Below, piece by piece: positions 10,957 to 57,551 of a DNA stretch of 64,000 bases. Origin of the DNA: Cyanophora paradoxa CCMP329. Lineage: Eukaryota; Plantae; Glaucophyta. The position numbers and the translations under genes were made by a program. Under the pieces are notes generated by a model. The model had not been told where the DNA came from. It worked only from the letters and a program-made list of their open reading frames with translations, and searched no databases. The stretch is taken from positions 1 to 64,000 of the forward strand of contig QPMI01000601.1 in assembly GCA_004431415.1 (NCBI GenBank), in the 5' to 3' direction. Each line of letters opens with the position of its first letter. Positions within the stretch are counted from its first letter, which is position 1.

Positions 10957-11197
10957 GCTCGCATGCAGGTCACCCCCACCAATTCGCGCGACCATTTTCA
11001 ATAAGCACATTTACAGCATCGCGAATCTCAGTCACAAAATCGTTAAAAAATCATAAATTCGCACTGAGCCACACTACATTTTTCAAACATCTAACCCTTC
11101 CTTACTGAAACCAATCACGAAACCCTTTAATTCTCCATTTTTCTAATTCCTTACCATTCTCAGTAAGCCCTTTAACCCTCCCCCAATCTCTCAGTAA

Positions 11198-19039: not shown

Positions 19040-19123
19040 CCCCTGCCTTCCTGCCTTTTGGTTGTTCAGGACCTCCCCAACACCACTTAAAGACATCTTG
19101 GTATAGTATACCAAATAGGAGCC

Positions 19124-36509: not shown

Positions 36510-37355
36510 ATGGGCGAATATAATCGAGTCCAATTACCAGTTTACGCATTGGGGAGTCCAGCAATTCATTTTAGACAACATGAAGTGTCTGATGAAGTTC
36601 GTGGAATGGAATCAACAGAACGGGCAAATTCAGGTAATGCTTTTGACAAGAATAGTATGATTCGTGTAAAAGAACTGAGAGCTGATAAAAATTCGGGAGT
36701 GGTGAAAACAACTCAACTTCTTGTAACAAATGCGAATTTTCAATCAGCAAATGGACAACCTGATGCGTATGGTGTAGATATCAAAGCATTTGAATTTGAC
36801 AATACAAGGGCTGCTGCTGTTATAAGATCAGGAGGAGCAATAATTGGTGGTGGCTGTAGAGTATCGGGAATGCTTGGCTCTTCTGCTGCCTTTAATGATT
36901 TTCCGGACACTTTACCTGAACATGCTGATAATCCCCAAAGAATTCGCATGTTTCTTCCATGCGGGGATTCCCCGTATGCTTTTGGTATCATTAGAGCTAA
37001 TGTAAATACGCAAAATGCCACTCAACCCCAAGGTATTGCCGGACCATGGAAATTGGCTAATCAGCTTCTACCAAAGGCAATGTATTCTATGTGTCGCTCT
37101 CAGAATGGAGGATTAGAAGGTTATACTTTCTTTGTTCAAGCAGTAGGCCATGGTGGGCGTGGATGGATCACAAGAAATCCTGCCACACAACCAAACAGTT
37201 TCGATTTTTGGGCATCAGAGGTAGGGGGTTATGATATTTTAATTTTTGGATATCGTAATGATGAAGCAGCATGGGCTGTTGCCAACTGTATAAATCCTGA
37301 TTCGCAGGTCTCGAATTTCTACAATGAACCATTTCCGAATGATCCCATTCCGTAA
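36510..37355 (+). CDS. Hypothetical protein, paralogue 1 (281 aa)
   Basis: Shares KELR.DKN.GVVKTT.LLVTNANF with the next gene. Confidence 0.8.
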   Translation: MGEYNRVQLPVYALGSPAIHFRQHEVSDEVRGMESTERANSGNAFDKNSMIRVKELRADKNSGVVKTTQLLVTNANFQSANGQPDAYGVDIKAFEFDNTRAAAVIRSGGAIIGGGCRVSGMLGSSAAFNDFPDTLPEHADNPQRIRMFLPCGDSPYAFGIIRANVNTQNATQPQGIAGPWKLANQLLPKAMYSMCRSQNGGLEGYTFFVQAVGHGGRGWITRNPATQPNSFDFWASEVGGYDILIFGYRNDEAAWAVANCINPDSQVSNFYNEPFPNDPIP

Positions 37356-37374
37356 TTATGTTTCAGTATATTAA

Positions 37375-38220
37375 ATGGCAGCACCAGCACCACCAGAGCG
37401 CATTTTAACAGCGCAACTATCATTAGCTGCTCCAGCTAACCACGTCTTACAGCATGCTATTATTGATAATATTGATGGTCTCGAATCCACAGAGATAGCC
37501 CCAACTCTGAATACTTTTGGTGACACTCACATGCTAAGACTAAAAGAGTTAAGATGTGACAAAAATAATGGGGTCGTTAAAACTACTAAACTTCTTGTAA
37601 CAAATGCGAATTTCAATGCGTTTCATGGAGATCCTGATAGTTACAATGATGACAACAAGGTAACAAACTTTGCCTATGAGGCAAGAAGGGGAGCAATTAA
37701 ATGTAGATCAGGAGGCGCCTATATTGGAGATGGTTTAAGGGTTGGTGGAATTATTGGAGCGCCCCTGTTAGTAAATGATCAACCCAATCCTGATGATGTA
37801 AATACAAGAATCAGGACATATGTCCCAGGTATGAATGAGCCCTACATTATAAAAATCAATACGATTATTATAAACCTTCAAACAGCCGTTCTGGATGTAT
37901 TAGAGCCTTTGGGAAATCATTATAGGTATATTGAGACATTGCCTGCTGATATTTACTCATTATGTAGACGAACTGATGGAGCAAGACCCCGTATTACAGT
38001 CCAAGTAGTCCCAGTAGATAATTTCGGTCTTGCTTTTCATTCATTGCCCCTGCTTGACACACAAGATGACCAATATATTATAAGAGCCACACAACAAGGG
38101 ACTTACACAGTAATTATGTATGCTGAAAGAAATGATGAAATCGCAAGAGGAAATCGATATGGACAGTATCTAACCACCAATTTATACAATCCCATTGGTG
38201 GAAGTGATCCTTTGCCTTAA
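37375..38220 (+). CDS. Hypothetical protein, paralogue 2 (281 aa)
   Basis: Tandem paralogue of 36510-37355; N-half conserved, C-half divergent. Confidence 0.8.
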   Translation: MAAPAPPERILTAQLSLAAPANHVLQHAIIDNIDGLESTEIAPTLNTFGDTHMLRLKELRCDKNNGVVKTTKLLVTNANFNAFHGDPDSYNDDNKVTNFAYEARRGAIKCRSGGAYIGDGLRVGGIIGAPLLVNDQPNPDDVNTRIRTYVPGMNEPYIIKINTIIINLQTAVLDVLEPLGNHYRYIETLPADIYSLCRRTDGARPRITVQVVPVDNFGLAFHSLPLLDTQDDQYIIRATQQGTYTVIMYAERNDEIARGNRYGQYLTTNLYNPIGGSDPLP

Positions 38221-38265: not shown

Positions 38266-38664
38266 ATGCTTGCCAAAGGTTACCATGTGATGCTTGATTT
38301 CCAATTCAGCCAACCAATTAGCGACCATGTGGGGCTCTCTAAATGGCTCATGACTGTCAGTGAAGACATCATCAAGAAATATGGAATACAGGTTGTCCAC
38401 AAACATGCTGAGATTTTTGATGGCACCAAATCACCCCCTGGATTTGCCCAAGTATTATTATTAGATGAAAGCCATTGCTCTGCTCATTGCTACAGTGATC
38501 AAGGCATGTTGGCAATAGATATATTCAGCTGTGGAAAACAGGCAGAAAGGAATACAAGTTTAATTGCTTTTGAGCTGGAGGAGGAGATAAACAAATATGC
38601 TATTGGATTTGGGGCAGTGATCAAAAAGAGATTACACCATGAGAAGAAGAGATTTGAAGTTTAA
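38266..38664 (+). CDS. speD: Prokaryotic-type S-adenosylmethionine decarboxylase proenzyme family protein (element B)
   Basis: GYHVMLDF...PPGFAQVLLLDESHCSAHCY...AIDIFSCG: ESH autocleavage site of pyruvoyl-dependent class 1B AdoMetDC. Confidence 0.88.
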   Translation: MLAKGYHVMLDFQFSQPISDHVGLSKWLMTVSEDIIKKYGIQVVHKHAEIFDGTKSPPGFAQVLLLDESHCSAHCYSDQGMLAIDIFSCGKQAERNTSLIAFELEEEINKYAIGFGAVIKKRLHHEKKRFEV

Positions 38665-38834: not shown

Positions 38835-38971
38835 TACTGGTGCCGAAAAGACATGATTAATACCCTAAGACTTGAAATAAATGCTTACTACCCTAGTACC
38901 TGAAACGCGCACACATAGGGATACCCCTGATCCAAGCCTGTAGGCCGAAGGCCGGAGGGCTTGGATCAGGG
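38835..38971. repeat. Right TIR of element B; outer hairpin arm truncated
   Basis: Reverse complement of the left TIR. Inner arm 38911-38938, centre TGTAGGCCGAAGGCCGGAG, outer arm only 14 of 28 bp. Confidence 0.92.
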
Positions 38972-39911: not shown

Positions 39912-40304
39912 ATGGATTCCCGATACCGCGGCTACCACGTTATGCTCGACTATATAACCGACCCGTTTACTGAGTCCCCGGAGGCATGCGCCGAGTGGAT
40001 CACAGCGAACCTATCGCAATATATCACAGATCGCAATATGCGCATCGTGCACCAGCACACATGCATTTTCGATGGCTCTATTTCCCCTCCCGGTTTCGCG
40101 ATCGGCTTCTTATTAGATGAGTCGCATGCGACAGCTCACTCTTATAGCGACCAGGGGCTATTAGCGATCGATATCTTTACATGCGGGTTAAATGCCGAAG
40201 CGAAGACGATGGGTATAGCACGGGACATTAACGAACTCATACAAGAAAGGCTGAAAGTTCGAAAGTGGGACTTCCAGGTCGAGCAAAGGTTCCCAATTTC
40301 ATAA
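39912..40304 (+). CDS. speD: AdoMetDC proenzyme family protein (element C copy 1)
   Basis: GYHVMLDY...PPGFAIGFLLDESHATAHSYSDQGLLAIDIFTCG. Confidence 0.88.
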   Translation: MDSRYRGYHVMLDYITDPFTESPEACAEWITANLSQYITDRNMRIVHQHTCIFDGSISPPGFAIGFLLDESHATAHSYSDQGLLAIDIFTCGLNAEAKTMGIARDINELIQERLKVRKWDFQVEQRFPIS

Positions 40305-40329
40305 AAAATGAAAAAAACGACAGATATAT

Positions 40330-40644
40330 TTAATGCTCCTTGATCGGAAACTTGCCCATTAGCGGGTGATCGAGACCCATGACATACCAGGATTTCATAA
40401 CGGGATCCCAGCGGGCTTTCTCAGCCTTCGCTTGATCCTTAAATTCATAAGGAATATCGAGGTAAACCTTCACGTTTCTTTGATACACTTGCTCATAGCT
40501 TAGAGTTTTGAACTGAGAGCATAGAGAGTGATCTTTCTTCGTGACATACCAGCATGAATTCTCACGATCCCACTTTCCACCGAGGGATTTCGCAACGTCT
40601 TTTTTATCATAGGGAATATCAACATAATACTTTTCACCCTCCAT
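40330..40644 (-). CDS. Protein of two DUF5710-like repeats
   Basis: YVDIPYDKKDVAKSLGGKWD....WYV and YLDIPYEFKDQAKAEKARWDP..KSWYV. Confidence 0.8.
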   Translation of the reverse strand: MEGEKYYVDIPYDKKDVAKSLGGKWDRENSCWYVTKKDHSLCSQFKTLSYEQVYQRNVKVYLDIPYEFKDQAKAEKARWDPVMKSWYVMGLDHPLMGKFPIKEH

Positions 40645-40683
40645 CTCTTTTATATTTACCGGAGAAAATAATTTCGGGGTTTG

Positions 40684-42066
40684 TTATGAACGAGAAGACC
40701 GAAGAATGCGCGTAGTAGGGGCTGTGTAGCTTGCGCTCTGATTCTTGAATGATTTATACCACCTCTGACTGTTTACCTCAGAGAGCTTCTCAGTTCCCGC
40801 GATCGTTAATTTGGCGAGCTCTCTAAGCGCCCTCTTTGTCTTTTCTGCGCGATCTTCCAATAGAGCGCCTTTTGGAACACTTGCGGCGACATCTATGCCT
40901 TCTTTTTGAACCTGCCGGATCGAAGCGGCTTCTATTTCGGCTGATTTAATTGCGTTGCCTGATGGTTCCACCACAGCCTCGACCTCTGTAATGATTTGCA
41001 ATTCGTGCGGCTTAAAAAGCTTCGGCATTACGTTCCCGGCTGCATCTTGCACCTCTATCGCGTTTCCTCTCCTTCCCGCAATTTTGTAGACCTCTCGGCT
41101 ATACCTTTGTGTTGCTCCTTTATCAAACTTTGATCTCGGCAATAATACACGGACGTGGAGACCCGGCTTAAAGTCGCTGAATATATCCTTTACGATTGTG
41201 TTCTTCCTTGAAATAATAGCCGCTCGGATCCGCTCCATATCAGAAAGCTTAACATCCCCGGGTTTCATTCCTATGGTTCTGTGAATGGTGTTATTATAAT
41301 TGAAAACGAAGTCGTCCAATTTGTCCATGAATCGAACTGTATTATAAGCGACACAGTAATTGTTTATCATCGTTTTTAAGGTCAAATGAAAGCGATTCAT
41401 TATTCCCAGAGAAGTGTGATCTCCGACCTGTTTAAAGCGGTGCTCTATTCCATTATTTTTTACGACCTCCTGAAACTCCTTCGCGATGAATTCCGAGCCG
41501 TTATCTGTCTCTAATCGAATCATCGGAGCCGGGAGCTCTGTGAGCATCTCCGCAAAAGCGGCGGCAACACTTGCGCCCTCCTTATTCTTTAACTTCTTGG
41601 CATATGCTTTTCGGCTCGTCATCTCGATGAGAGTAAGGACTGCAATGTAGCCGGAATTATAATTGCCATATGAGAGATAAAAGATGAGATCCGCTTGATA
41701 GCACCACGGCGGGGCTGTGATGGGAATAAAAGCTGTTTGGGTTGGTGCGGGGGGCTTCTTGTTGATCTGCATAAATTCTTGTTTCGCTGCGACATCTTGC
41801 ACTTCTTTCAGTGTGAGGGTCTTGTCCTCTTTTCTCAGTTCTTCGTACAATGCCGATGGGTTCTTAAAACCTGTCTTTGGGTCATACATGCGGCGCACGA
41901 TCTTAGAGGACGGGTTAGCAATGCTAAAAGGAACATCTCCTAATAAATTTGATTTTGCTTGGCGTTTTGTGATTTTTTGGGGGACTTGCTCAGTTTCAGG
42001 AACCGCGATAGGTAGTATGGTGGTCTCTGTCTCCTCTCCCGCTACCCTTCTGACGATCCGTGACAT
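40684..42066 (-). CDS. rve integrase of element C copy 1
   Basis: YQADL, LETDNGSEF, YNNTIHRTIGMKP. The third catalytic position reads GIMNRF rather than GRIEAF. Confidence 0.88.
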   Translation of the reverse strand: MSRIVRRVAGEETETTILPIAVPETEQVPQKITKRQAKSNLLGDVPFSIANPSSKIVRRMYDPKTGFKNPSALYEELRKEDKTLTLKEVQDVAAKQEFMQINKKPPAPTQTAFIPITAPPWCYQADLIFYLSYGNYNSGYIAVLTLIEMTSRKAYAKKLKNKEGASVAAAFAEMLTELPAPMIRLETDNGSEFIAKEFQEVVKNNGIEHRFKQVGDHTSLGIMNRFHLTLKTMINNYCVAYNTVRFMDKLDDFVFNYNNTIHRTIGMKPGDVKLSDMERIRAAIISRKNTIVKDIFSDFKPGLHVRVLLPRSKFDKGATQRYSREVYKIAGRRGNAIEVQDAAGNVMPKLFKPHELQIITEVEAVVEPSGNAIKSAEIEAASIRQVQKEGIDVAASVPKGALLEDRAEKTKRALRELAKLTIAGTEKLSEVNSQRWYKSFKNQSASYTAPTTRILRSSRS

Positions 42067-42085
42067 TTCTTCTAATTAAACCTGT

Positions 42086-45000
42086 TTATTTTTTGCTGCA
42101 ATTGCACCCGTGATGCGCGAGTTGACAATTGTCTTTAAGATGTGGGCGCCTGTTGTTTATGCGATCCACGACGAGCTTGTAATTCGGATCTTGCGGCTCA
42201 ATCGGAATCGGAAGGGAACAGAGCGCACAGGCGCCCTTCTGTTGCTTCTTGCGCTCTAATATCCACTCCGGCGTAATATAATCCGCCTCGTCGAAATCGC
42301 GCCCGGCACGCTGATCCTGGCATTTATAACCGCGGATCTTCGTTTTCAGATATTCGATGTAGTCATGCTTTCCTTGGAACTTGTGAATCGGTGTATAAAT
42401 CAGCACAGTAGACAGATCGCGGTTACGAGTGAGCGCGGTATAGAACCATTCGCGAGTGGTATAGCGGAACGTAGCCTCACAAATGACAATGCCCGAATCA
42501 AGTGTGAGACCTTGCGTTGAATGACCTGTTCCTGCATAAGGGAGAGAAAAATGTTCTAACATCGCGCACGGAACCTCGAACGTGACGCCATCGAAAACGT
42601 CAGTTAATGTGACCATTTGCTTTGTGATTTTGGTGATTCGATAGGTGTAATTCGTGTATGCGTTAACAGACTCGCCCTCAGACCGCGAAATGCGTAGATA
42701 CCTGCGACAAACGACTTCCAGACCTTTGTAGAATTTGATGCCGTTGACCTCTACGGTTGCAATATTTACTTTTCGTCTATCGTGCATCAGTTTGTTGTAG
42801 GCTAAGGTCATTTCGTTTCTGTAAGCGATGCCAAAGTAGCCGTCGGGAATAGCGTTTAGATCATTAATTGTCGGCAACCCGTATTTCGAGATAATCTGTG
42901 CGGCTTCCAGTCCGTTTTCGAAGAGATCCTCTTTAATCGCCCGAATTAATTCACGGTCTGTCTCCTTCTTGTGCCGCTTGTTAATGCGTAGACTCAGAAC
43001 GTTCGGGAACATGCTTTGCACCGCACGCTTATAGTAGCCCTTGCGATCAGAAACCGATAGCTCATCATTAATCGGTTCATTTTGATAGGTGTCGCCATTA
43101 GCTAAATATTTGATATCCGGATAGCGATCGATAAACGACTTGATCTTAGCGAGATCTTTTACAGAATACGCGAATATCTCGTCGAACATAATGTGGCTGA
43201 ACTCGGAGACGAACGCCCTCTGGTCTTTTTCGCTCATAGCCTCTTCGTAGGTCTGATCATTGGAGACACGGATCCCGAGAACATTATACAAAGTACGAAC
43301 GGTAATATTCTCGATTCCGCGGACTTTGAGAGAGTCCCTTAGCTCTGCGCACTGTTTGTTATAGGGGCAAATAACTAAGCAATTCGACTTTTGAGATGCG
43401 AAACAGTTAACTCCGAGGGTCGATTTTCCACTACCGGGCATGTCAGCAAGGACAAGCATACGATTATGGAGCTCCGCGACCCGATTAAAGCACTCCGGAT
43501 TAAATTCGTCCCTCAGCGAGAACCGGTTAATGAGTGTGTCGGGATCCTGAATTTCGAGAGTTACACCCCGTGGTGGGCGGAGTGCATTCTCAGGGCATCT
43601 TTTCCCGGGAATATAGCTGAATTTGCCCATGTTCTCAAACGCATTTCGGTCGAACTCTTTCTTACTTGTCCATGAACCTTCGATATATAGGCAATCCGTT
43701 CTGATCCCGGCAACCTTGTGCCCGCGCGCTGTCAGGCGCTTGTATTGCGCGAACATATTAGCGCGGTTACGATCGTAAATATGAAAGTGGATAGGAAGGA
43801 ATCCGTTAACGAGCTCGCGGTGGGAGCTGATCTTAACGAAATAGATGTGACCTTCGAATTCGCTAAGAGCTTTGACACGTTTCGAATTCTTAGGATTGAA
43901 AGTAAACACCTCTACTGTTCCTCCGCATTCTTGGGCGAACCTTTCAGCCTCGGCACGGTTGTAGAACATTTTCGTGGATGTTTGCGAGTCTTGGAATTTG
44001 CCGAGCATTCCGATCTCTTTCACTAAAATGTGCTTCTTGTCCGTGTTTTGAATGTCGCTTGACAGCACTTTCTTCATCTCAGCGATCGACGTATTGGGCA
44101 CCAAATGCGAAGGCTCCGCGACCGCGATAATCTCTATCTTGTCCTTTACGTCCGCCCAGTGCATGGCGAGAGTGTAGCCTGTCATGAAATTATAACAGCG
44201 ACCACTCACTGAAAATGCGCGATCCAGAATAATTTCGACTCCATCAATCTTGCGAGACATGGCGGCATCATAATCTACATCCTCATCGTCGGCGAAAGTC
44301 GCTTGCTCTCTCTCAAACGCGACCACACGCACGTAGTAGATCGCGTATTCGAGAATATCGCTTCCCACTTTAAAGGGAACGAAGTCATCGAATACATTGT
44401 ATTTCGGAAGATATTGCATGCCTTTCAGTATCGAAGGGTAGCACTTCGCCATATCGACGGCTGTGTAGGTGGCTTTCGGGTTCGGCTTATAGAAATAGCC
44501 GCTTAGTGCGGATCGCTTGTAGTGCGTGAGAATTTCGCGCATGTTCGGACTGTAATGTGAGATATTCGTCGCATTTAGAAGCGACTCGCGGAAACCCTTC
44601 CCGATTTCACAGACCTTATTATAATACTCCTCTGTTTCGAAATCTTGCTCAATAAAGTGGTCTGTTGTGCGCGGATCTTTGATAGAGAACATGGAGCCAT
44701 TAGCTTTGAATGTGATGCTGTCGATCTGTTTCGATGGTGTAAGCTTCACAGCGGGCTCATATCGCATTTTCAGGAACGTAAATAGAAGCCCTTCCAGACC
44801 TTCGCGCCCAGTATAAAGAATGCGGATGAAACTGCGCTCGTCAGGCGATAGTTTAAGTTGCGTGATCTTTAACAAATCCTTGGATGTGTGCGCGAAGATA
44901 TCGTAAGTAAGACACGTCGGAATTTTATAGAGTGCTAACGAAGAGTTGGACTTAGGAACATGATTATCGAGCTCTTCGACCTCCATCTTTGCCATGCGCA

Positions 45001-46396
45001 TTTCGAGCGACTTGATGTTATCGTTGAATATATAGATGTGCTTGTTGTGAATCATAAAGTGAATATTGCGGGGAAAGATGTTTTTGTTAATTGATTCCGC
45101 CGCGAATTTGTATATTAACTTACCGTCGACATCAAAGACGCGGAAGCCTGTCTGAATTCTCTTACAGAATTTCTCGATATGGCGGAGGGTGAGAGCCAGA
45201 GAGTCGCCAGGTGTGCGTTCGCGACCGTGAAAGAATTTATAGAGACCGTCGTACGACATAGTTAAGTCAGTATATCGCGGTTTTGGCGCCTCCTGACACT
45301 TCTTAATGGACGCTCCCCATGTGGAGATGATCATATCATAGCCGCAAGCGTTAGATGTCGATGATTTGGGAAGCTCAATAACATCTTCGAACTCAGACGC
45401 GTTTGGATTTAATGTATAGTCTGTGAATTTGCTCATAATCGCGGTGCATCGCATACTGTCCATGAGCTCCTCATCCAGAAACGCGTAGCGATTTCCAGGA
45501 ATAGCACCGGCTCCGTCATCTTCGACACCTTCGTCCCCATCGATCGCGATCTCATGAACAGTTATAAAGGCATCATCGACACTGCCGCCAAAATCATCGA
45601 AACCTTTGCGTAGTTTTTTCTGTTCCTCGGTTGGTGGTGTCTTAAAGAAGAACATCTCGTATGCTTGTCCGAAAGTTCCCAGACGAATCTTCAATTCATC
45701 GTAGTTTTCGAGTAAATCGAAGATTGAATCTCTCTCTTCCGAATAATAACGATTTTGAGCGGTGAGAATTCCATACACTCTATCGATTTTTGCCAGAGCA
45801 AAGTTTCTCAACACCCTCACCGAAACTGTCTCTCTTATATTGCGGTAGGTGACAAAGGTTCTGTCTGGTATATTTAATTCGGGAATTCCGGGAATAACAA
45901 TTACCTCCGTCGACCGAGCACCGGATCCAGGCGCCCACATCTTGAACGTAATTGTTGCGAGAGTTTCCGGATCGTATGCGGCGATTGGGTCGAGAATAGT
46001 GCGTTTAATCGCATCCTCTACCGCTTTTAGTTTACCTCTCTGCTGCTTCGCTTCGAGTTTCGCTTCTTTCGCTCGTTTCTGTTCTTGCTTGCGATCGAAG
46101 CGCTGTAAACGCTTAGCCTCTTGTTCTTTTTGCTTCTGCTTTTCTATATTAACTTGGGTGCGAGCGGCGCGCTTTTCTTTCCGCTCTGCCCTGCGGAAAA
46201 CGCGGGGATTAATGATTCCATTCAGAGTATCCCGAATGTCGATCAGCGTTTGGAGCTTGGGCTTCCGATTCATTGTGTTGTGCATCGCCCAATGCGCCTG
46301 TTCTTCGGTTAGCAAATCCTGACTCAATCCCTGCATAATGTATCCGATAATCTCCTCCCGAACATTGTTAGCGATTCTGTTGGCTGCGCGCGGCAT
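42086..46396 (-). CDS. 1436-aa fusion: divergent family B polymerase + SF1 (RecD/Pif1-like) helicase + C-terminal HNH nuclease
   Basis: AVDMAKCYPS (motif A), KHILVKEIG (B-like), GIRTDCL (C-like); MPGSGKST, MFDEI, GDTYQNEP, TGHSTQGLT, FYTALTR; CALC...VDRINNRRPHLKDNCQLAHHGCN. Confidence 0.8.
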   Translation of the reverse strand: MPRAANRIANNVREEIIGYIMQGLSQDLLTEEQAHWAMHNTMNRKPKLQTLIDIRDTLNGIINPRVFRRAERKEKRAARTQVNIEKQKQKEQEAKRLQRFDRKQEQKRAKEAKLEAKQQRGKLKAVEDAIKRTILDPIAAYDPETLATITFKMWAPGSGARSTEVIVIPGIPELNIPDRTFVTYRNIRETVSVRVLRNFALAKIDRVYGILTAQNRYYSEERDSIFDLLENYDELKIRLGTFGQAYEMFFFKTPPTEEQKKLRKGFDDFGGSVDDAFITVHEIAIDGDEGVEDDGAGAIPGNRYAFLDEELMDSMRCTAIMSKFTDYTLNPNASEFEDVIELPKSSTSNACGYDMIISTWGASIKKCQEAPKPRYTDLTMSYDGLYKFFHGRERTPGDSLALTLRHIEKFCKRIQTGFRVFDVDGKLIYKFAAESINKNIFPRNIHFMIHNKHIYIFNDNIKSLEMRMAKMEVEELDNHVPKSNSSLALYKIPTCLTYDIFAHTSKDLLKITQLKLSPDERSFIRILYTGREGLEGLLFTFLKMRYEPAVKLTPSKQIDSITFKANGSMFSIKDPRTTDHFIEQDFETEEYYNKVCEIGKGFRESLLNATNISHYSPNMREILTHYKRSALSGYFYKPNPKATYTAVDMAKCYPSILKGMQYLPKYNVFDDFVPFKVGSDILEYAIYYVRVVAFEREQATFADDEDVDYDAAMSRKIDGVEIILDRAFSVSGRCYNFMTGYTLAMHWADVKDKIEIIAVAEPSHLVPNTSIAEMKKVLSSDIQNTDKKHILVKEIGMLGKFQDSQTSTKMFYNRAEAERFAQECGGTVEVFTFNPKNSKRVKALSEFEGHIYFVKISSHRELVNGFLPIHFHIYDRNRANMFAQYKRLTARGHKVAGIRTDCLYIEGSWTSKKEFDRNAFENMGKFSYIPGKRCPENALRPPRGVTLEIQDPDTLINRFSLRDEFNPECFNRVAELHNRMLVLADMPGSGKSTLGVNCFASQKSNCLVICPYNKQCAELRDSLKVRGIENITVRTLYNVLGIRVSNDQTYEEAMSEKDQRAFVSEFSHIMFDEIFAYSVKDLAKIKSFIDRYPDIKYLANGDTYQNEPINDELSVSDRKGYYKRAVQSMFPNVLSLRINKRHKKETDRELIRAIKEDLFENGLEAAQIISKYGLPTINDLNAIPDGYFGIAYRNEMTLAYNKLMHDRRKVNIATVEVNGIKFYKGLEVVCRRYLRISRSEGESVNAYTNYTYRITKITKQMVTLTDVFDGVTFEVPCAMLEHFSLPYAGTGHSTQGLTLDSGIVICEATFRYTTREWFYTALTRNRDLSTVLIYTPIHKFQGKHDYIEYLKTKIRGYKCQDQRAGRDFDEADYITPEWILERKKQQKGACALCSLPIPIEPQDPNYKLVVDRINNRRPHLKDNCQLAHHGCNCSKK

Positions 46397-46415
46397 CTCT
46401 ATTAGTTCTTTTAAA

Positions 46416-46438
46416 ATAACCGGAGAAAATAATTTCGG
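46416..46438 (-). promoter_or_regulatory. Putative promoter motif of element C genes (minus strand: TATTTTCTCCG)
   Basis: CGGAGAAAATA recurs at ~40660, ~46421, ~46990 and ~47548, each 10-35 nt upstream of a minus-strand ATG. Confidence 0.65.
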
Positions 46439-46565
46439 CGCAATCTACCAAATCCTCCTTTTCATACCCTTGTTGTTAATTCCTTAAATGCTTTTTCGAC
46501 GGATACGGGGAATAAAAAGGGAGGTAAAAAATTAATCATTTTTTGCGTCGTACGGATACTTTCCG

Positions 46566-46979
46566 CTACGAATTTTTCGCGTTCTCGACGACATGCTTTC
46601 GGGGTCTCCCAGCGGGCTTTTGCGGCTGGGGCTTCACCGGCGGATTCAGCTTTCGTTCCGCTCTTTTTCTGCGTTGGTATTCCCGTGCCTTTTCCCTGAT
46701 TTTCTCCCGATACTCTTCATCGTCTTGGTATCGCTGCTGTTTACGAATTGCGATCTTTTGTAGCTGCTCCGGGGTAAATACGGTCGCTTCCCCTGCGGCT
46801 AATCGCTCTTGCTTTTGTCTCTGATGCTTGTTTCGCTGCCGCTCTGCATCTTTCTCGCGTTTTAGTCTTAATCTCTCCGCTTTCTCCTCTTCTGTGATCA
46901 CCTTCTTCGGTCGCCCTGGTCTGCGCTTTTCTTGCTGTGCCGCCATTGCCTCTTGGTTTGAAATCTTGGGTTTCGCCAT
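46566..46979 (-). CDS. Basic helical protein with two AT-hooks
   Basis: RRPGRPKK and PAGRPRK flanking a K/R/E-rich helix with YQDDEEYRE. Confidence 0.7.
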   Translation of the reverse strand: MAKPKISNQEAMAAQQEKRRPGRPKKVITEEEKAERLRLKREKDAERQRNKHQRQKQERLAAGEATVFTPEQLQKIAIRKQQRYQDDEEYREKIREKAREYQRRKRAERKLNPPVKPQPQKPAGRPRKHVVENAKNS

Positions 46980-47103
46980 TTACTATAACCGGAGAAAATA
47001 GTTTTTTGTCACTCTGTATTATTTCCCTTGCCCTTATATACCTTTTACCGAAACCTTCAATTTTTGCCCTCGGATCGATAGGAGCACCACCGAAATTCAC
47101 CGC

Positions 47104-47517
47104 TCAATAACCGTTCCAGACGGTTCTTTCTTGTTGCTGAGGATATACATAAGGGTTTGTTAAGCTGTCATCGTCGCCTAATGCCATTTGATCCAATCTA
47201 TACATCGGATAAGGTGAATCAGCGCGCAAATGCCCTTCCACAAATTCGGGACATGATCGCCTTCTAATATGCTCTACATGCACGTCCTCTATCTGAGCGG
47301 TTTCAATATTAGAACTCATAGCCGCGGGCACAGGCGAGGGCGATCGAGATCTTGGGTGGTTGTGATTGTCGCTGTGGTTAGAATATACAGAAAGGCGCCT
47401 ACCTCCATTGTCTTCATCGCTTATATCAACCTCTACGGTTGTGTCGCAGCAAGAGTTGTGGCACGTGCTTGTGAAATGCAAATGAAACATTTCAATGCAT
47501 TGTGTGATGAAATTCAT
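47104..47517 (-). CDS. SCCDTT-motif small protein (homologue of 20881-21147)
   Basis: Conserved first ~33 aa, then a Ser-rich disordered tail. Confidence 0.75.
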   Translation of the reverse strand: MNFITQCIEMFHLHFTSTCHNSCCDTTVEVDISDEDNGGRRLSVYSNHSDNHNHPRSRSPSPVPAAMSSNIETAQIEDVHVEHIRRRSCPEFVEGHLRADSPYPMYRLDQMALGDDDSLTNPYVYPQQQERTVWNGY

Positions 47518-47721
47518 CGACCCTACAAATGGGCAACGTATTAAATATCGGAGAAAATAAAAGGGAATGAGGGCTTTACTTGCTCGTGTGTTCCCCTACG
47601 AATTGGTCGACCTTATAATGCTGTTTATGGAGCCGACATGCCCGTTTTGCAAGGGCATTCATATTAAGACCCGCTCTAAATACGGGCGGATTCAGCTTTG
47701 CCTTGCGGATATTCACAGCCA

Positions 47722-48405
47722 TTAGCGGATATGGCGTTTACCACCAAGCATTGCGGCATAATTTACGGGTGCAGTCGGCACTATATGTGCATATTGCGGG
47801 GCGACCGATTGCTGACGAGTCACGGCTTGCGCATCTGTCTTTTCCTCCTTTTTAATCTCCTCTACGTCGACCTTTTGCTTTAATCCGAGTTTCGAGATCT
47901 CTTTCTTTACGAGCCCCTTTAATTTCTTGCGTTCGTTATAATCTTGCATCCATTTCTCGTAGTTTGACACTTTCATTTCAAGATCTCGCACTTTCTCTTC
48001 GAAGCTCATGACAACGTCGACTGGAACAGTGTGTTTTTGATAGGATCCGCGCTTTTTAAGCTCGGTTTCGGCGGCTTTCGGGACGTCTTGTGTCTTGTGC
48101 TGGCTTGCAACAACTTGCGCTTTGAGTACTTTGTCGGTTGCTTCATCAACAGAGCCGCCTCCAATCTGTGGTTTTACAGTAGCTAAATCCTCCATTTGGC
48201 GTTTACCGCTATCTTGGTTTCCCTTGTCCGCGGTGGCACTCGCAATAATTGCCTCTTGCTTGGCAACCTCCTCTGGCGAAGTGTCTACAAGATATTCGGG
48301 CATTTCGAGACCGCCACCCGACGTTAATCCAGACTCTTCAAGTCCGCGATTTGGATTACCAGAAGCGACCGTTTGAATGGTTTGAGGCTTCTTTCGGTAG
48401 ACCAT
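47722..48405 (-). CDS. Coiled-coil protein downstream of ATPase (homologue of 21432-22166)
   Basis: DKV......H.VP......KV.DLE.K.S..E.....ER.KLK....KE..K.G shared with the B gene. Confidence 0.75.
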   Translation of the reverse strand: MVYRKKPQTIQTVASGNPNRGLEESGLTSGGGLEMPEYLVDTSPEEVAKQEAIIASATADKGNQDSGKRQMEDLATVKPQIGGGSVDEATDKVLKAQVVASQHKTQDVPKAAETELKKRGSYQKHTVPVDVVMSFEEKVRDLEMKVSNYEKWMQDYNERKKLKGLVKKEISKLGLKQKVDVEEIKKEEKTDAQAVTRQQSVAPQYAHIVPTAPVNYAAMLGGKRHIR

Positions 48406-48407
48406 GA

Positions 48408-49274
48408 TTATCTTCTCTTACATTTGATTAACATTTTCTTTTTCTTAGGCGAAATTTGGGAAAGTTTTGGGATACCTTCAAGCTCACGTTCAAATTTGGA
48501 TAAAGTTTTACAGACAGTTGTCGAATCTTTGACAGGCGGCGGTTTTGTAGCTTGCTCCTCTTGCTGTTTGCGCTTCTTTTCTTCAAAAGCCGCCCGCTTG
48601 TGGAATTTAGTAAACGGATGGTCATCGATCATATCGGCTTTTTCGACCCACCATCGCACAGAATACCCGGTATTATCGTGAATGATCGCTTGGTAGCTAT
48701 GACAGAATTCTTGGAACATGCGCTTGAAACTCTCTTTATCCATGTTCCCGAATTCCTCGTGATATGCTTCAAACTCTCGCATGTTTGACCAGCTTAGGAA
48801 TATGATATACTCCGCATTGCTGCGAATGATCGTTGACAGCTTTGTTAGTTTCTGCGATATTAAAGCGACGCTACAAAACGTATGACGACCTTGCGCCATC
48901 AATTTATTTAGCAAATGATCGCGCGAAAGATCGATAGTTCCGGACTCCAAACAATCGTCGAGCACGATAAGAATATTCTTTGGTTTCTTACCCGCAATGA
49001 TAGCCTTTTTGCGGGCTTCTATGATCGACTCTACGTATTCCGGTTTCCAGGTATCATGCACTTCGTCTGTTATTTGACCCCAGAAACCGTTAAAACTCGT
49101 AGGACAGAAAACCAGAACATACGAGATCTGGTCTTCGAGTTCTTTGATCAGCCACTTTAAGAATACCGATTTACCACAATTGGTTTTCGCCAATAGGAGA
49201 AATCGTGCGGGAAGTTTCACCCTTTGTTTCGGGTTCCATTCTTCGAGATCCATGGGCGTCGTCCCTTTTTGCAT
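48408..49274 (-). CDS. A32/FtsK-like packaging ATPase (element C)
   Basis: AKTNCGKS, LIVLDD, QGRH....ISQ, IIRSNAEY; likely start at 49274 or 49253. Confidence 0.9.
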   Translation of the reverse strand: MQKGTTPMDLEEWNPKQRVKLPARFLLLAKTNCGKSVFLKWLIKELEDQISYVLVFCPTSFNGFWGQITDEVHDTWKPEYVESIIEARKKAIIAGKKPKNILIVLDDCLESGTIDLSRDHLLNKLMAQGRHTFCSVALISQKLTKLSTIIRSNAEYIIFLSWSNMREFEAYHEEFGNMDKESFKRMFQEFCHSYQAIIHDNTGYSVRWWVEKADMIDDHPFTKFHKRAAFEEKKRKQQEEQATKPPPVKDSTTVCKTLSKFERELEGIPKLSQISPKKKKMLIKCKRR

Positions 49275-49332
49275 TCTTTCACTATAAAAACAATAGAAAA
49301 ATAAGACTGACTGTGGTAATCTCACGAATTCC

Positions 49333-50356
49333 TTAGCTACTTACTCTGCGAATACCATCAGCTCCGATTATCATGATATTATGAGCGAGGGCAATGCACT
49401 GAATTTGCATCTTCTGATAAGCGGCACCCGCATACCACTCCTCATTACCGACTCCACCGGCTGTGACACCATTGAATTCGAAGACCAGATCGAACGCCGA
49501 TGTGCCTGTGGCATCGATGTAGCCCGTGTTCTCTTGGTTGAGAAGCGACGCCTTTCCGTTTCCAGCACCGAAGTAAATGCCAGTGAGAGCGGGGTAGCTT
49601 GTGCTCTCGGTAAAGATCGCCGAATTATATTTATCTTGAAGTTCGGTCGCGGCAATCATGAGAGGAAGCGAAGTATTCGAGTAAAGGCGGTTATTGTTGA
49701 GTTCCACATAGAAGTTCACAGCGTTGGTTCGGAGTGCACGAGGAGCCAGAACCGAGAGAGTTCCGTTGTTCACCTTCGTCTTCGCGTTTTGGCGCACAGA
49801 GAATACGAGAGTGTGGATGAGACCCGCACCTGTGAGTTGCGAGAGATTGACTCGCGAACCGGAGGCGGTCGGCTGGAAATCTGTGTGGAGGAAACCGATT
49901 TCGTTGTAGGGATCGCGATACCAGTCGATTTTACACGGGCAATGGTCTCAGATACAACCGCCTCATCGGCATTTACGACCTTGCAGATAATGCGGGTTTC
50001 AGCACTTGAAGGGAAGCGCCATTGTTGGTAACCGCAATATTGGCAACATTGTTAGTATCCTCAATGATACCATCACCAATCGCCTTGAATTCGATTTCGA
50101 CCACGATCTCAGAGTTCAGAGCGCAAAGTGGGAACATCGCCTTCTCGAAAGGAGAGGGTAAATCGATTTCGTAGGTTCCACCGACAGTGTTACCAGCGGT
50201 TCCGACAAGACCACCCACATAGCGAAGTTTCTTATCGAGTTCGCCCTGTTCGGTCATCAGTAGAAAATACTGGGTGACGAAATCCTCTGGGACAACGTAG
50301 CGGAATGAAGCGTGAGAGATTTCGATGCGCTTAATCAGCGATCCAATAACGCGAAG
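49333..50356 (-). pseudogene. 5'-truncated major capsid protein gene of element C copy 1
   Basis: RVIGSLIKRIEISHASFRYVVPEDF aligns with RPVGALVERLEFSYGSYTYHVPSDF of the D MCP, and the C-terminus ADGIRRV with KDGIRRI. Roughly the first 95 codons are replaced by the end of copy 2. Confidence 0.75.
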
Positions 50357-50758
50357 GCTCGCATGCAGGTCACCCCCACCAATTCGCGCGACCATTTTCA
50401 ATAAGCACATTTACAGCATCGCGAATCTCAGTCACAAAATCGTTAAAAAATCATAAATTCGCACTGAGCCACACTACATTTTTCAAACATCTAACCCTTC
50501 CTTACTGAAACCAATCACGAAACCCTTTAATTCTCCATTTTTCTAATTCCTTACCATTCTCAGTAAGCCCTTTAACCCTCCCCCAATCTCTCAGTAAGGA
50601 CAGTAAGACCCTTATTTTTACGAAATGTTCCCGATCGTTTCCAAACTGTTTACAGTTACCCAAATTGAAAAATCAAGGTGACCCCCACCGATAGCTCAAA
50701 TCAACATATAAAATGCGTTGATCCCCACTTAAAGGTTTCCCGCTATTTAGCTATAAAG

Positions 50759-51082
50759 ATGCCGAGCAATCAACTCCCACTACCCAAACGTAAGCAATGC
50801 ACTATCTGCAAAGTAGATAGACCTGCATCGTGTTTTGGTTTGCGTAAATTAAAAACTGGTAATGTCACATTAAATCCGCGATGCATCGAATGCGACCGTG
50901 ACTATCACGTTGACCTGTATCACAATGTCTTAAAAACGCGTCCGAAGATCGAAGTACAATCGAAGATATGCTCGCACTGCAAGATTGAGAAGCTTGCAAG
51001 TGAGTTTAATAAAAGACAAAGAACGAAGGATGGTCTCAACTATCAATGCCGAGAGTGTTATAGCAAAACTCGTAAGAGTTAA
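50759..51082 (+). CDS. Small protein with two CxxC...CxxC zinc-finger repeats (only a 3' remnant, 38977-39108, in copy 1)
   Basis: CTIC..F......PRCIEC and CSHC..EF....KDGLNYQCREC. Confidence 0.75.
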   Translation: MPSNQLPLPKRKQCTICKVDRPASCFGLRKLKTGNVTLNPRCIECDRDYHVDLYHNVLKTRPKIEVQSKICSHCKIEKLASEFNKRQRTKDGLNYQCRECYSKTRKS

Positions 51083-51884
51083 ACAGAATTTAATTGTATA
51101 GTTTTTAAAGCAAGTTTGTGCATGAGCAAGCATGCCGAAAATGCCCACCTGCACAAACTTGCGAGATCAAGGTAAGCCCCACCGACAAAGTACGACGATA
51201 GACCACGTTAAAATACACTCGCGCCCCGCCCACTATGCAAGATACATGCAAACTACATGCGAGTTATATGAAAAATAAACAATTCAGTCATGTATATATT
51301 TCGTATATATGTCCGAACCTCCGTGTGTGTGATCCCGCACAACTTTGAATTTTTTGTGTTGTTTTTTGTTTTTTTCTCATATGACGACATATACATATAT
51401 ATACCGGCGTCACCGACGTATTCGGGGTCATCACATCGCGGCGATTCCGAAAACATATAGCATGCCACAAAGTAGTATTTTATGTGTTTTTCGATGTTCG
51501 ACCAATCAGAAGCCACTAGAAAGGGGGGAGACCGGTTTTGTGGACACCGGGGATACCCATTTTGTGGACATTTGTGGACACCGGGGATACCCATTTTGTG
51601 GACACCGGGGATACCAGTTTTGTGGTTATTTTGTGGACAAAATGCAAAAAACTGAAAAACAAACAAAAACGAAAAACAACGAAAGACGTAAAAAAACCAA
51701 TTCGAAAAACACTTCAAAAACTCGAAAAACAAACGAAACCGCCACGCAAACCGACAAATCGCTGTATCTCTTCACCAACTCATCGCCTTGCAAAACCAAA
51801 AATAGCGCCGTGACCGTCTTGCCAAGACCAGCACGCCTGTGTAGGTATCATAGGGTCATTAAAATATGTGTCAAATAATTAATA

Positions 51885-52277
51885 ATGGATTCCCGATACC
51901 GCGGCTACCACGTTATGCTCGACTATATAACCGACCCGTTTACTGAGTCCCCGGAGGCATGCGCCGAGTGGATCACAGCGAACCTATCGCAATATATCAC
52001 AGATCGCAATATGCGCATCGTGCACCAGCACACATGCATTTTCGATGGCTCTATTTCCCCTCCCGGTTTCGCGATCGGCTTCTTATTAGATGAGTCGCAT
52101 GCGACAGCTCACTCTTATAGCGACCAGGGGCTATTAGCGATCGATATCTTTACATGCGGGTTAAATGCCGAAGCGAAGACGATGGGTATAGCACGGGACA
52201 TTAACGAACTCATACAAGAAAGGCTGAAAGTTCGAAAGTGGGACTTCCAGGTCGAGCAAAGGTTCCCAATTTCATAA
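51885..52277 (+). CDS. speD: AdoMetDC proenzyme family protein (element C copy 2)
   Basis: Same translation as 39912-40304. Confidence 0.88.
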   Translation: MDSRYRGYHVMLDYITDPFTESPEACAEWITANLSQYITDRNMRIVHQHTCIFDGSISPPGFAIGFLLDESHATAHSYSDQGLLAIDIFTCGLNAEAKTMGIARDINELIQERLKVRKWDFQVEQRFPIS

Positions 52278-52302
52278 AAAATGAAAAAAACGACAGATAT
52301 AT

Positions 52303-52617
52303 TTAATGCTCCTTGATCGGAAACTTGCCCATTAGCGGGTGATCGAGACCCATGACATACCAGGATTTCATAACGGGATCCCAGCGGGCTTTCTCAGCCT
52401 TCGCTTGATCCTTAAATTCATAAGGAATATCGAGGTAAACCTTCACGTTTCTTTGATACACTTGCTCATAGCTTAGAGTTTTGAACTGAGAGCATAGAGA
52501 GTGATCTTTCTTCGTGACATACCAGCATGAATTCTCACGATCCCACTTTCCACCGAGGGATTTCGCAACGTCTTTTTTATCATAGGGAATATCAACATAA
52601 TACTTTTCACCCTCCAT
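52303..52617 (-). CDS. DUF5710-repeat protein (copy 2)
   Basis: Same translation as 40330-40644. Confidence 0.8.
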   Translation of the reverse strand: MEGEKYYVDIPYDKKDVAKSLGGKWDRENSCWYVTKKDHSLCSQFKTLSYEQVYQRNVKVYLDIPYEFKDQAKAEKARWDPVMKSWYVMGLDHPLMGKFPIKEH

Positions 52618-52656
52618 CTCTTTTATATTTACCGGAGAAAATAATTTCGGGGTTTG

Positions 52657-54036
52657 TTATGAACGAGAAGACCGAAGAATGCGCGTAGTAGGGGCTGTGT
52701 AGCTTGCGCTCTGATTCTTGAATGATTTATACCACCTCTGACTGTTTACCTCAGAGAGCTTCTCAGTTCCCGCGATCGTTAATTTGGCGAGCTCTCTAAG
52801 CGCCCTCTTTGTCTTTTCTGCGCGATCTTCCAATAGAGCGCCTTTTGGAACACTTGCGGCGACATCTATGCCTTCTTTTTGAACCTGCCGGATCGAAGCG
52901 GCTTCTATTTCGGCTGATTTAATTGCGTTGCCTGATGGTTCCACCACAGCCTCGACCTCTGTAATGATTTGCAATTCGTGCGGCTTAAAAAGCTTCGGCA
53001 TTACGTTCCCGGCTGCATCTTGCACCTCTATCGCGTTTCCTCTCCTTCCCGCAATTTTGTAGACCTCTCGGCTATACCTTTGTGTTGCTCCTTTATCAAA
53101 CTTTGATCTCGGCAATAATACACGGACGTGGAGACCCGGCTTAAAGTCGCTGAATATATCCTTTACGATTGTGTTCTTCCTTGAAATAATAGCCGCTCGG
53201 ATCCGCTCCATATCAGAAAGCTTAACATCCCGGGTTTCATTCCTATGGTTCTGTGAATGGTGTTATTATAATTGAAAACGAAGTCGTCCAATTTGTCCAT
53301 GAATCGAACTGTATTATAAGCGACACAGTAATTGTTTATCATCGTTTTTAAGGTCAAATGAAAGCGATTCATTATTCCCAGAGAAGTGTGATCTCCGACC
53401 TGTTTAAAGCGGTGCTCTATTCCATTATTTTTTACGACCTCCTGAAACTCCTTCGCGATGAATTCCGAGCCGTTATCTGTCTCTAATCGAATCATCGGAG
53501 CCGGGAGCTCTGTGAGCATCTCCGCAAAAGCGGCGGCAACACTTGCGCCCTCCTTATTCTTTAACTTCTTGGCATATGCTTTTCGGCTCGTCATCTCGAT
53601 GAGAGTAAGGACTGCAATGTAGCCGGAATTATAATTGCCATATGAGAGATAAAAGATGAGATCCGCTTGATAGCACCACGGCGGGGCTGTGATGGGAATA
53701 AAAGCTGTTTGGGTTGGTGCGGGGGCTTCTTGTTGATCTGCATAAATTCTTGTTTCGCTGCGACATCTTGCACTTCTTTCAGTGTGAGGGTCTTGTCCTC
53801 TTTTCTCAGTTCTTCGTACAATGCCGATGGGTTCTTAAAACCTGTCTTTGGGTCATACATGCGGCGCACGATCTTAGAGGACGGGTTAGCAATGCTAAAA
53901 GGAACATCTCCTAATAAATTTGATTTTGCTTGGCGTTTTGTGATTTTTTGGGGACTTGCTCAGTTTCAGGAACCGCGATAGGTAGTATGGTGGTCTCTGT
54001 CTCCTCTCCCGCTACCCTTCTGACGATCCGTGACAT
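52657..54036 (-). CDS. rve integrase of element C copy 2 (three 1-bp homopolymer deletions)
   Basis: Otherwise matches 40684-42066. Confidence 0.82.
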
Positions 54037-54055
54037 TTCTTCTAATTAAACCTGT

Positions 54056-56316
54056 TTATTTTTTGCTGCAATTGCACCCGTGATGCGCGAGTTGACAATT
54101 GTCTTTAAGATGTGGGCGCCTGTTGTTTATGCGATCCACGACGAGCTTGTAATTCGGATCTTGCGGCTCAATCGGAATCGGAAGGGAACAGAGCGCACAG
54201 GCGCCCTTCTGTTGCTTCTTGCGCTCTAATATCCACTCCGGCGTAATATAATCCGCCTCGTCGAAATCGCGCCCGGCACGCTGATCCTGGCATTTATAAC
54301 CGCGGATCTTCGTTTTCAGATATTCGATGTAGTCATGCTTTCCTTGGAACTTGTGAATCGGTGTATAAATCAGCACAGTAGACAGATCGCGGTTACGAGT
54401 GAGCGCGGTATAGAACCATTCGCGAGTGGTATAGCGGAACGTAGCCTCACAAATGACAATGCCCGAATCAAGTGTGAGACCTTGCGTTGAATGACCTGTT
54501 CCTGCATAAGGAGAGAAAAATGTTCTAACATCGCGCACGGAACCTCGAACGTGACGCCATCGAAAACGTCAGTTAATGTGACCATTTGCTTTGTGATTTT
54601 GGTGATTCGATAGGTGTAATTCGTGTATGCGTTAACAGACTCGCCCTCAGACCGCGAAATGCGTAGATACCTGCGACAAACGACTTCCAGACCTTTGTAG
54701 AATTTGATGCCGTTGACCTCTACGGTTGCAATATTTACTTTTCGTCTATCGTGCATCAGTTTGTTGTAGGCTAAGGTCATTTCGTTTCTGTAAGCGATGC
54801 CAAAGTAGCCGTCGGGAATAGCGTTTAGATCATTAATTGTCGGCAACCCGTATTTCGAGATAATCTGTGCGGCTTCCAGTCCGTTTTCGAAGAGATCCTC
54901 TTTAATCGCCCGAATTAATTCACGGTCTGTCTCCTTCTTGTGCCGCTTGTTAATGCGTAGACTCAGAACGTTCGGGAACATGCTTTGCACCGCACGCTTA
55001 TAGTAGCCCTTGCGATCAGAAACCGATAGCTCATCATTAATCGGTTCATTTTGATAGGTGTCGCCATTAGCTAAATATTTGATATCCGGATAGCGATCGA
55101 TAAACGACTTGATCTTAGCGAGATCTTTTACAGAATACGCGAATATCTCGTCGAACATAATGTGGCTGAACTCGGAGACGAACGCCCTCTGGTCTTTTTC
55201 GCTCATAGCCTCTTCGTAGGTCTGATCATTGGAGACACGGATCCCGAGAACATTATACAAAGTACGAACGGTAATATTCTCGATTCCGCGGACTTTGAGA
55301 GAGTCCCTTAGCTCTGCGCACTGTTTGTTATAGGGGCAAATAACTAAGCAATTCGACTTTTGAGATGCGAAACAGTTAACTCCGAGGGTCGATTTTCCAC
55401 TACCGGGCATGTCAGCAAGGACAAGCATACGATTATGGAGCTCCGCGACCCGATTAAAGCACTCCGGATTAAATTCGTCCCTCAGCGAGAACCGGTTAAT
55501 GAGTGTGTCGGGATCCTGAATTTCGAGAGTTACACCCCGTGGTGGGCGGAGTGCATTCTCAGGGCATCTTTTCCCGGGAATATAGCTGAATTTGCCCATG
55601 TTCTCAAACGCATTTCGGTCGAACTCTTTCTTACTTGTCCATGAACCTTCGATATATAGGCAATCCGTTCTGATCCCGGCAACCTTGTGCCCGCGCGCTG
55701 TCAGGCGCTTGTATTGCGCGAACATATTAGCGCGGTTACGATCGTAAATATGAAAGTGGATAGGAAGGAATCCGTTAACGAGCTCGCGGTGGGAGCTGAT
55801 CTTAACGAAATAGATGTGACCTTCGAATTCGCTAAGAGCTTTGACACGTTTCGAATTCTTAGGATTGAAAGTAAACACCTCTACTGTTCCTCCGCATTCT
55901 TGGGCGAACCTTTCAGCCTCGGCACGGTTGTAGAACATTTTCGTGGATGTTTGCGAGTCTTGGAATTTGCCGAGCATTCCGATCTCTTTCACTAAAATGT
56001 GCTTCTTGTCCGTGTTTTGAATGTCGCTTGACAGCACTTTCTTCATCTCAGCGATCGACGTATTGGGCACCAAATGCGAAGGCTCCGCGACCGCGATAAT
56101 CTCTATCTTGTCCTTTACGTCCGCCCAGTGCATGGCGAGAGTGTAGCCTGTCATGAAATTATAACAGCGACCACTCACTGAAAATGCGCGATCCAGAATA
56201 ATTTCGACTCCATCAATCTTGCGAGACATGGCGGCATCATAATCTACATCCTCATCGTCGGCGAAAGTCGCTTGCTCTCTCTCAAACGCGACCACACGCA
56301 CGTAGTAGATCGCGTA
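54056..56316 (-). pseudogene. 3' half of the PolB-SF1-HNH fusion gene of copy 2, interrupted by element D
   Basis: Matches 42086-44347; identity stops at GATCGCGTA|ACACATA. Confidence 0.88.
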
Positions 56317-57498: not shown

Positions 57499-57551
57499 TG
57501 GATTCTGTTTTTTACTGTAAAAACATTGTATCTTAGGTGTATCAATCTCAA

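Follow-up and report, generated by a model that had tools for sequence, protein, structure and literature searches.

An intact pPolB-S1H replicase gene in a nested polinton-like element of Cyanophora paradoxa, and how it might copy its element

How does a mobile element copy itself when the one polymerase palm it visibly encodes has lost canonical residues and is fused to a helicase and a nuclease? The question is raised by an open reading frame (ORF) of the glaucophyte Cyanophora paradoxa CCMP329, here called the replicase, which lies on the reverse strand of a 64,000-nucleotide stretch (NCBI GenBank assembly GCA_004431415.1, contig QPMI01000601.1, positions 1 to 64,000; hereafter the window). 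It belongs to element C, which shares the window with elements A, B and D. A preliminary description, made from the sequence alone, had parsed the chain as a degenerate family B DNA polymerase (PolB) followed by a superfamily 1 (SF1) helicase and a zinc-binding HNH nuclease, with a tentative OTU-like Cys/His pair upstream, and had implied that this combination was new. The replicase almost certainly belongs to the pPolB-S1H (Tlr1-like helicase) family of protein-primed PolBs (pPolBs). The fusion is already published, and the gene simply adds one more member to a large, common family. We also consider it fairly probable that it serves an integrase-bearing polinton-like virus (PLV) whose linear DNA it copies from the ends, by strand displacement with a protein primer.

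The frame is open throughout its 1,436 codons, and all of the motifs quoted in the preliminary description are present. The OTU-like region contains NACGY (residues 349–353) and NKHIY (451–455), and the polymerase contains DMAKCYP (648–654), KKHILVKEIG (787–796) and IRTDC (898–902). Walker A (988–992), FDEI (1071–1074) and motifs III–VI (1101–1324) mark the helicase; CxxC (1390–1393), DRINN (1411–1415), H1419, N1423 and HxxC (1428–1431) mark the nuclease. At E ≤ 0.001, a search with residues 237–1436 against 1.84 billion cluster representatives (50% identity clusters) returned 1,360 proteins, of which 808 also pass 1e-10 and 385 pass 1e-30; among the matches listed (the best 150 of 1,360), the closest relative is ∼32% identical to the replicase. 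Our family alignment holds the 133 proteins of at least 1,150 amino acids (aa) out of 158, the 25 shorter ones being omitted. C351, H453, D648, K788, G796 and D901 do not vary in these 133 full-length homologues, nor do the helicase residues K991, E1073, Q1105, T1290, Q1295 and R1324. Because these catalytic positions are invariant, the quoted motifs are not chance matches. AlphaFold2 models (mean predicted local distance difference test score (pLDDT) of 78.3 for residues 120–960; 92.3 for residues 950–1436) and fold searches place an OTU domain, a PolB core and an SF1B helicase at the motif positions. Together with conservation, they bear out the earlier domain parse in every part, including the tentative OTU.

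Other searches added little. Pfam matched only weak helicase families in the whole replicase and nothing informative in four separate N-terminal and central domains or in the C-terminal domain. An IMG/VR profile scan found 16 loci that match a short helicase stretch only (E 1e-5 to 8e-4), and an alignment-based profile search brought in one further protein. The viral protein H6WBE3 (999 aa), presumably a transpoviron protein, ranks first among structural matches to the polymerase half and seventh among those to the helicase half.

Tlr1-like helicases have been described as proteins of 1,000–1,400 aa with a pPolB palm, no exonuclease and motif C substitutions, in which the helicase is followed by HNH in PLVs and by GIY-YIG in Tlr1 (PMC5499653). 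They have since been renamed pPolB-S1H (PMC11161782). The fusion is reported from many endogenous elements (PMC13215967) and helicase-nuclease fusions from cryptophyte PLVs (PMC12220804), while PMC12721341 restates the pPolB-S1H fusion and adds a separate one of opposite order. The implied novelty does not hold, since the vOTU, the absence of an exonuclease, the loss of the motif C Asp and the C-terminal HNH can all be read in PMC5499653 and PMC11161782. The replicase shares its size class, variable N-terminus, vOTU Cys and His, palm motifs A–C, absent first Asp of motif C, lack of exonuclease motifs and SF1B helicase with the Tlr1, PLV and transpoviron members, and its C-terminal HNH is like that of the PLV members. 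It stands beside an rve integrase as in Tlr1, but carries HNH where Tlr1 has GIY-YIG. Unlike most pPolB-S1H proteins, it has Val for the motif B Asn, and unlike canonical Polinton/Maverick pPolBs it lacks exonuclease motifs and a full DTD motif C. The pMVRE groups 2 and 3 are alike by description, with a palm-retaining truncated pPolB and an SF1 helicase in eukaryote genomes (PMC13215967). We rejected a likeness to the OmPLV fusion of Oxyrrhis marina: it too joins an SF1 helicase and a pPolB in one ∼1,500 aa chain, but its domain order is opposite, its exonuclease is intact and it is described as an independent fusion (PMC12721341). As a published and common fusion, the gene has little value as a discovery; its remaining value is as test material.

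The polymerase core is of the protein-primed type. Its best solved fold match is phi29 DNA polymerase (PDB 1xhx, 2pyj), which shares the core fold at 9% identity (Z 15.4, root-mean-square deviation (rmsd) 4.9, 364 aligned residues); the next PolB reaches Z 8.1, and RNA-primed PolBs stay at Z ≤ 8.1 against the same half-model. All nine Foldseek matches in PDB at E ≤ 0.001 are phi29 polymerase chains (E 1.5e-6). In BFVD there are 32 viral matches at E ≤ 0.001, the named ones mostly protein-primed PolBs, and mavirus pPolB (rank 3) is a top structural match. The model shows insertions between motifs A and B and a long hairpin between B and C, inside the phi29-aligned range, as candidates for the TPR1 and TPR2 subdomains. 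The phi29 enzyme itself has an active exonuclease and a separate terminal protein, and neither helicase nor nuclease.

Several familiar polymerase residues are missing. The first Asp of motif C is R899 in the replicase and mostly K (87), N (22), R (12) or H (7) in the relatives, with no Asp among the six commonest residues, which cover 130 of the 133. The motif B Tyr position holds I, T, S, L, V or F. The motif B Asn, present in 122 relatives, is replaced in 11 (V in seven, C in two, L in two). We rejected copy-specific decay as the cause of this last change, which is shared and clustered. On a FastTree tree (with a long-branch warning on the query, which is joined with P0033), 3 changes suffice to explain Asn loss, whereas shuffled labels need 11.6 and none of 500 shuffles needs as few; 10 of the 11 Asn-lacking relatives fall with the query in a 16-row group with support 94. 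Because the Asn-lacking relatives cluster, we read the change as characteristic of a lineage, not as decay of the copy in the window. Both metal-binding Asp residues, by contrast, are invariant, so the word "degenerate" in the preliminary description is likely wrong. With its catalytic residues unchanged in all 133 relatives, the palm is likely active despite the lost motif C Asp. An active palm is also predicted for pPolB-S1H in PMC11161782, which points to PolBs that work without this Asp. The same authors have argued palm activity both ways (inactive in 2016, active in 2024), and an intact gene in many isolates of one organism, from the group without the motif B Asn, offers a stringent case.

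Upstream of the palm, the earlier remark that no clear exonuclease motifs exist is sound: residues 471–644 hold no invariant acidic residue, the best D/E column counting 103 of 133 relatives. The phi29 alignment nevertheless begins at replicase residue 496 and spans phi29 chain residues 5–498. If the exonuclease domain of phi29 is taken to end near residue 189, at least 55 of the 364 aligned pairs lie within it. From these structure ranges, the replicase seems to retain part of the exonuclease fold. Since a profile-profile comparison with the pPolB family of element B gives no support in the remnant region (or in the HNH region), the evidence for the fragment is structural only. An exonuclease remnant has been reported for mavirus, while pPolB-S1H is described without an exonuclease domain (PMC11161782).

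Between this region and the N-terminus, many OTU chains align to residues 319–463 (Z 4.2–5.7), each match middling and all in one place; a vOTU with intact Cys and His has been reported for pPolB-S1H proteins (PMC11161782). Further upstream, an alpha/beta domain predicted at low confidence (residues ∼140–300) sits where PMC11161782 places a terminal-protein-equivalent domain, a position occupied by at least three different folds according to that paper. No terminal protein appears among the listed fold matches of the residue 120–960 model, which does not exclude one, and an Atlas search with the N-terminal domain gave scores below 0.9 throughout.

Downstream of the palm, the helicase matches RecD2 (Z 25.9, rmsd 4.3, 333 aligned), Pif1 (Z 25.0) and Dda (Z 23.7), with a profile match at E 4e-12. 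Its SF1B membership implies 5′-to-3′ polarity.

For the C-terminal nuclease, a 16-row profile of the domain found four PDB matches at E ≤ 10. Three are to His-Me finger nucleases, at weak E values (McrA 0.43, DraIII 1.1, PacI 1.1). In the weak PacI alignment, D1411-R1412 falls on the PacI Asp-Arg and H1419 on the PacI loop Tyr. Pfam HNH was detected in three of 47 members (best E 0.02), a single-sequence PDB search with the domain found no match, and an Atlas search with it gave no score of 0.9 or above. The pattern D/N/Q-R-x6-H/Y-x3-N-x4-CxxC-N/Q is complete in 113 of the 133 relatives, and the H1419 site holds His in 122 and Tyr in four. H1419, N1423 and the last Cys occur together in 121 relatives at ∼30% identity, a count favoured by a query that included the nuclease domain. 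Among the 12 without this trio, two have GIY-YIG (PF01541) in place of HNH as in Tlr1 (P0005 and P0006), Tyr fills the His site in four, and the other six stop short or diverge; three of the 133 stop 10–11 residues past helicase motif VI.

Judged by sequence, the domain looks PacI-like, with Arg at the usual His site and a His in the loop. PacI-type nucleases (group 20 of PMC5714182; PDB 3ldy) likewise have Asp-Arg for the usual Asp-His, and in PacI the loop Tyr substitutes for the absent catalytic His (PMC5714182; PMC3384342 agrees). The replicase differs from PacI in its loop His and in its fusion to a helicase. By analogy with the PacI Tyr, H1419 would be the general base. Retention at ∼30% identity suggests a selected role of some kind, against the published homing/intein reading, and H1419 offers a single residue with which to challenge that reading. 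Our literature search found no printed link of PacI to polintons and a helicase. We found neither the retained PacI-like nuclease nor the exonuclease-fold remnant in print; figures or supplements of the cited papers may show either.

The gene is also present elsewhere. At least half of the replicase words occur in 20 of the 24 sequencing runs listed (18 studies, all of one organism); no RNA run is among the listed holders, which says nothing on expression. In all four runs compared, contigs cover all 30 bins of 40000–50950. Among the best supported 40 of 330 rows of differences between copies, 25 fall inside the ORF; 15 of these are synonymous (21.6% expected, p 3.5e-5) and none is a stop. Each of the four runs has a contig that tracks the window to 50357 and then diverges for at least 255 letters, as expected if other copies of C continue there. 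Between 728 and 1,102 contigs per run align to the 11 kb of 40000–50950 at 90–100% identity. These numbers suggest many diverged copies, although depth is not a copy number.

How might such a chain copy its element? In the scheme we favour, which borrows each step from known families, the vOTU would release an N-terminal priming part by cleaving the polyprotein. The palm, which has no proofreading and keeps only two of the usual three carboxylates, would then elongate this protein primer, and the 5′-to-3′ helicase would follow the displaced strand, moving the same way as the fork. The adjacent rve integrase speaks for this scheme, as pPolB co-occurs with DDE integrases in these viruses (bioRxiv 10.64898/2026.10.13.758929). 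C also carries an A32 ATPase gene and a candidate capsid gene, as a PLV would. The nuclease would likely have been kept as an accessory, for end processing or for cutting rival DNA, and would not be the initiator; this is the weakest step. Other observations weigh against the scheme as well. The N-terminal 300 residues are poorly modelled, which leaves the priming domain a candidate only, and poorly conserved, with one column at 50% or above. The replicase motif B lacks both Asn and Tyr, the nuclease trio is retained in most relatives, which is more than one would expect of a passenger, and only the left end of C is inside the window, so no terminal inverted repeats are seen there. Our literature search found no biochemical test of any pPolB-S1H.

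The preliminary description had pointed instead to a nick-, unwind- and synthesise-type replicase: the His-Me finger would nick near an element end, the palm extend the 3′-OH and the helicase displace the strand, with no protein primer. We regard this as improbable, even with the nuclease residues kept in 121 relatives and the full pattern in 113, a poorly conserved N-terminus, a terminal-protein position filled by at least three folds (PMC11161782), and a visible end of C unlike the hairpin ends of A, B and D. The vOTU Cys and His are invariant in all 133 relatives, which calls for some useful product of N-terminal cleavage; some relatives have another nuclease or none, and transpoviron proteins were found to lack such a domain (PMC5499653); and the core is nearest to the protein-primed phi29 enzyme. 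Nick initiation is less likely because the vOTU and a phi29-like protein-primed core are kept while the nuclease is swapped or absent in some relatives, and protein-primed strand displacement from the ends is the more likely of the two. It is equally doubtful that the C-terminal domain is a domesticated PacI-like nickase, not a homing passenger, whose general base has moved to the loop His and which makes the 3′-OH that starts synthesis or frees an integrated copy. If it were, one chain could both excise and copy the element, and hairpin-free ends would fit such chemistry. A somewhat better alternative, still unlikely, is that the palm is an inactive scaffold or DNA clamp and that the helicase partners a polymerase supplied by the host or by a giant virus, as held in 2016. 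The lost motif C Asp and motif B Tyr, and in the replicase the lost motif B Asn, are what this predicts; inactivation is argued in PMC5499653, and transpovirons have been assumed to lack a polymerase (PMC7031253). Yet D648, K788 and D901 are invariant in all 133 relatives, the steric gate is always aromatic (Y in 128, F in five), PolBs without the same Asp are active according to work cited in PMC11161782, and the visible part of C contains no other polymerase gene. Far less credible is the reading that the ORF is decaying in an insertion already dead, or that the nested cluster was misassembled. The first C copy does have a broken, truncated capsid gene, D cuts into the second, and nothing but five homopolymer indels separates the two, so that copy 2 could be a long-read duplication artefact. 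For the replicase gene itself, however, this reading is largely refuted by the open 4.3 kb frame, by its presence in 20 of the 24 runs listed (18 studies), and by full coverage in the four runs compared, with mostly synonymous differences.

Table 1. Coordinates of the replicase, its domains and the other features of element C in the window
Feature	Position	Strand	Remarks
pPolB-S1H (Tlr1-like helicase) gene	42086..46396	-	1,436 aa, intact
alpha/beta domain at the position of the terminal-protein-equivalent domain	45497..45979	-	~aa 140-300, pLDDT ~35-65
vOTU cysteine protease domain	45008..45439	-	~aa 320-463, C351 + H453
Probable exonuclease-fold remnant without catalytic residues	44507..44911	-	~aa 496-630
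Protein-primed-type PolB palm	43577..44479	-	motif A D648; B K788, V792, G796; C R899-T900-D901
SF1B helicase, RecD2/Pif1/Dda type	42383..43519	-	~aa 960-1338
Zinc-binding His-Me finger (HNH) nuclease	42089..42364	-	PacI-like pattern D1411 R1412 H1419 N1423 N1432
rve integrase directly downstream of the replicase	40684..42066	-	PF00665 E 1.7e-13
A32-type packaging ATPase, element C	48408..49274	-	PF04665 E 1.7e-10; 39% to B's ATPase
Major capsid protein gene, element C, frameshifted, 5′ end removed by second C copy	49333..50356	-	tblastn to D's capsid-like gene E 2e-15
Probable left end of C, first copy	10957..11197		241 bp, identical to 50357-50597; no hairpin; B from 11198
Second, partial C copy	50357..56316		left end, zinc-finger ORF, S-adenosylmethionine decarboxylase, integrase, replicase 3′ half; cut at 56316 by hairpin-ended D

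The layout of element C and its neighbours (Table 1) is most simply read as nested. C would begin at ∼10957 and contain B (11198–38976), with 353 bp of C missing; a second C, from ∼50357, would truncate the capsid gene of the first, and D, from 56317, would cut the replicase of the second. The segment 38977–44347 recurs at 50951–56316 (5,371 bp, 99.9% identity, five one-base homopolymer differences). As the preliminary description had it, C shares families with B: the integrases are 40% identical and the ATPases 39%. The capsid claim holds against D, whose capsid-like gene is 28% identical to that of C. The S-adenosylmethionine decarboxylases of B and C are also 43% identical, and three further small genes are shared and keep the same order. 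The further claim of a wholly different replication module is an overstatement, because B and C both carry pPolB-type palms; judged by motifs, B has its own pPolB-type gene and a D5-like helicase gene. Profiles of the two families meet at the palm with E 0.032 (probability 1.6%, motifs A and C in register) and at the vOTU with E 0.09, against 0.23–0.66 for reversed controls; sequence profiles do not establish homology of the two palms. That B-like and C-like elements have exchanged modules is plausible and fits an established pattern (PMC11161782; bioRxiv 10.64898/2026.10.13.758929), replicase exchange being described as common in the latter.

The visible end of C indeed has no hairpin, folding at -4.7 kcal/mol compared with -20.8 to -37.5 kcal/mol for the hairpin ends of A, B and D; it lies at ∼10957/50357, however, and not beside the right end of B. 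As to the different end chemistry proposed for C, a difference in end structure is seen at one end of C only. Near-perfect hairpins end elements A, B and D (11198–11272, 38911–38971, 8861–8937 and 56317–56423). The two ends of B are inverted copies (137 bp, 98.5%) with loops that appear reverse-complementary and a shortened right end. Hairpin-ended B nonetheless encodes a pPolB with an apparent vOTU Cys. Our literature search found no hairpin termini in pPolB-plus-integrase elements, and the hairpin ends of A, B and D look more interesting than the replicase fusion.

The nested elements show other features of note. Where B appears to lie within C (10957–50356), the loss of 353 bp of C is accompanied by no target-site duplication, unlike the usual outcome of an rve integrase. 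The end of element A (pPolB 3′ part, integrase and repeats) is tandemly duplicated in 1265–8899 (3.8 kb, 99.8%), much as C is, and either duplication could be a long-read artefact. In B, the D5-like helicase gene is succeeded by a palindrome of 149 bp (18895–19043) and then by two arrays of 31-bp tandem repeats (19744–19991 and 20204–20482), all of them standing between the replication genes and the capsid genes. B also encodes a patatin-like ORF (from motifs; 27741–29030), two long fibre-like ORFs with 39-bp tandem repeats (29074–36470) and two paralogous 281-aa ORFs (36510–38220). The S-adenosylmethionine decarboxylase genes of B and C are at 38266–38664, 39912–40304 and 51885–52277 (PF02675 for C). 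AT-rich arrays of 55–63 bp repeats lie by the hairpin ends of D and A (56730–57530, 4815–5060 and 8635–8880) and are candidate origins or protein-binding sites.

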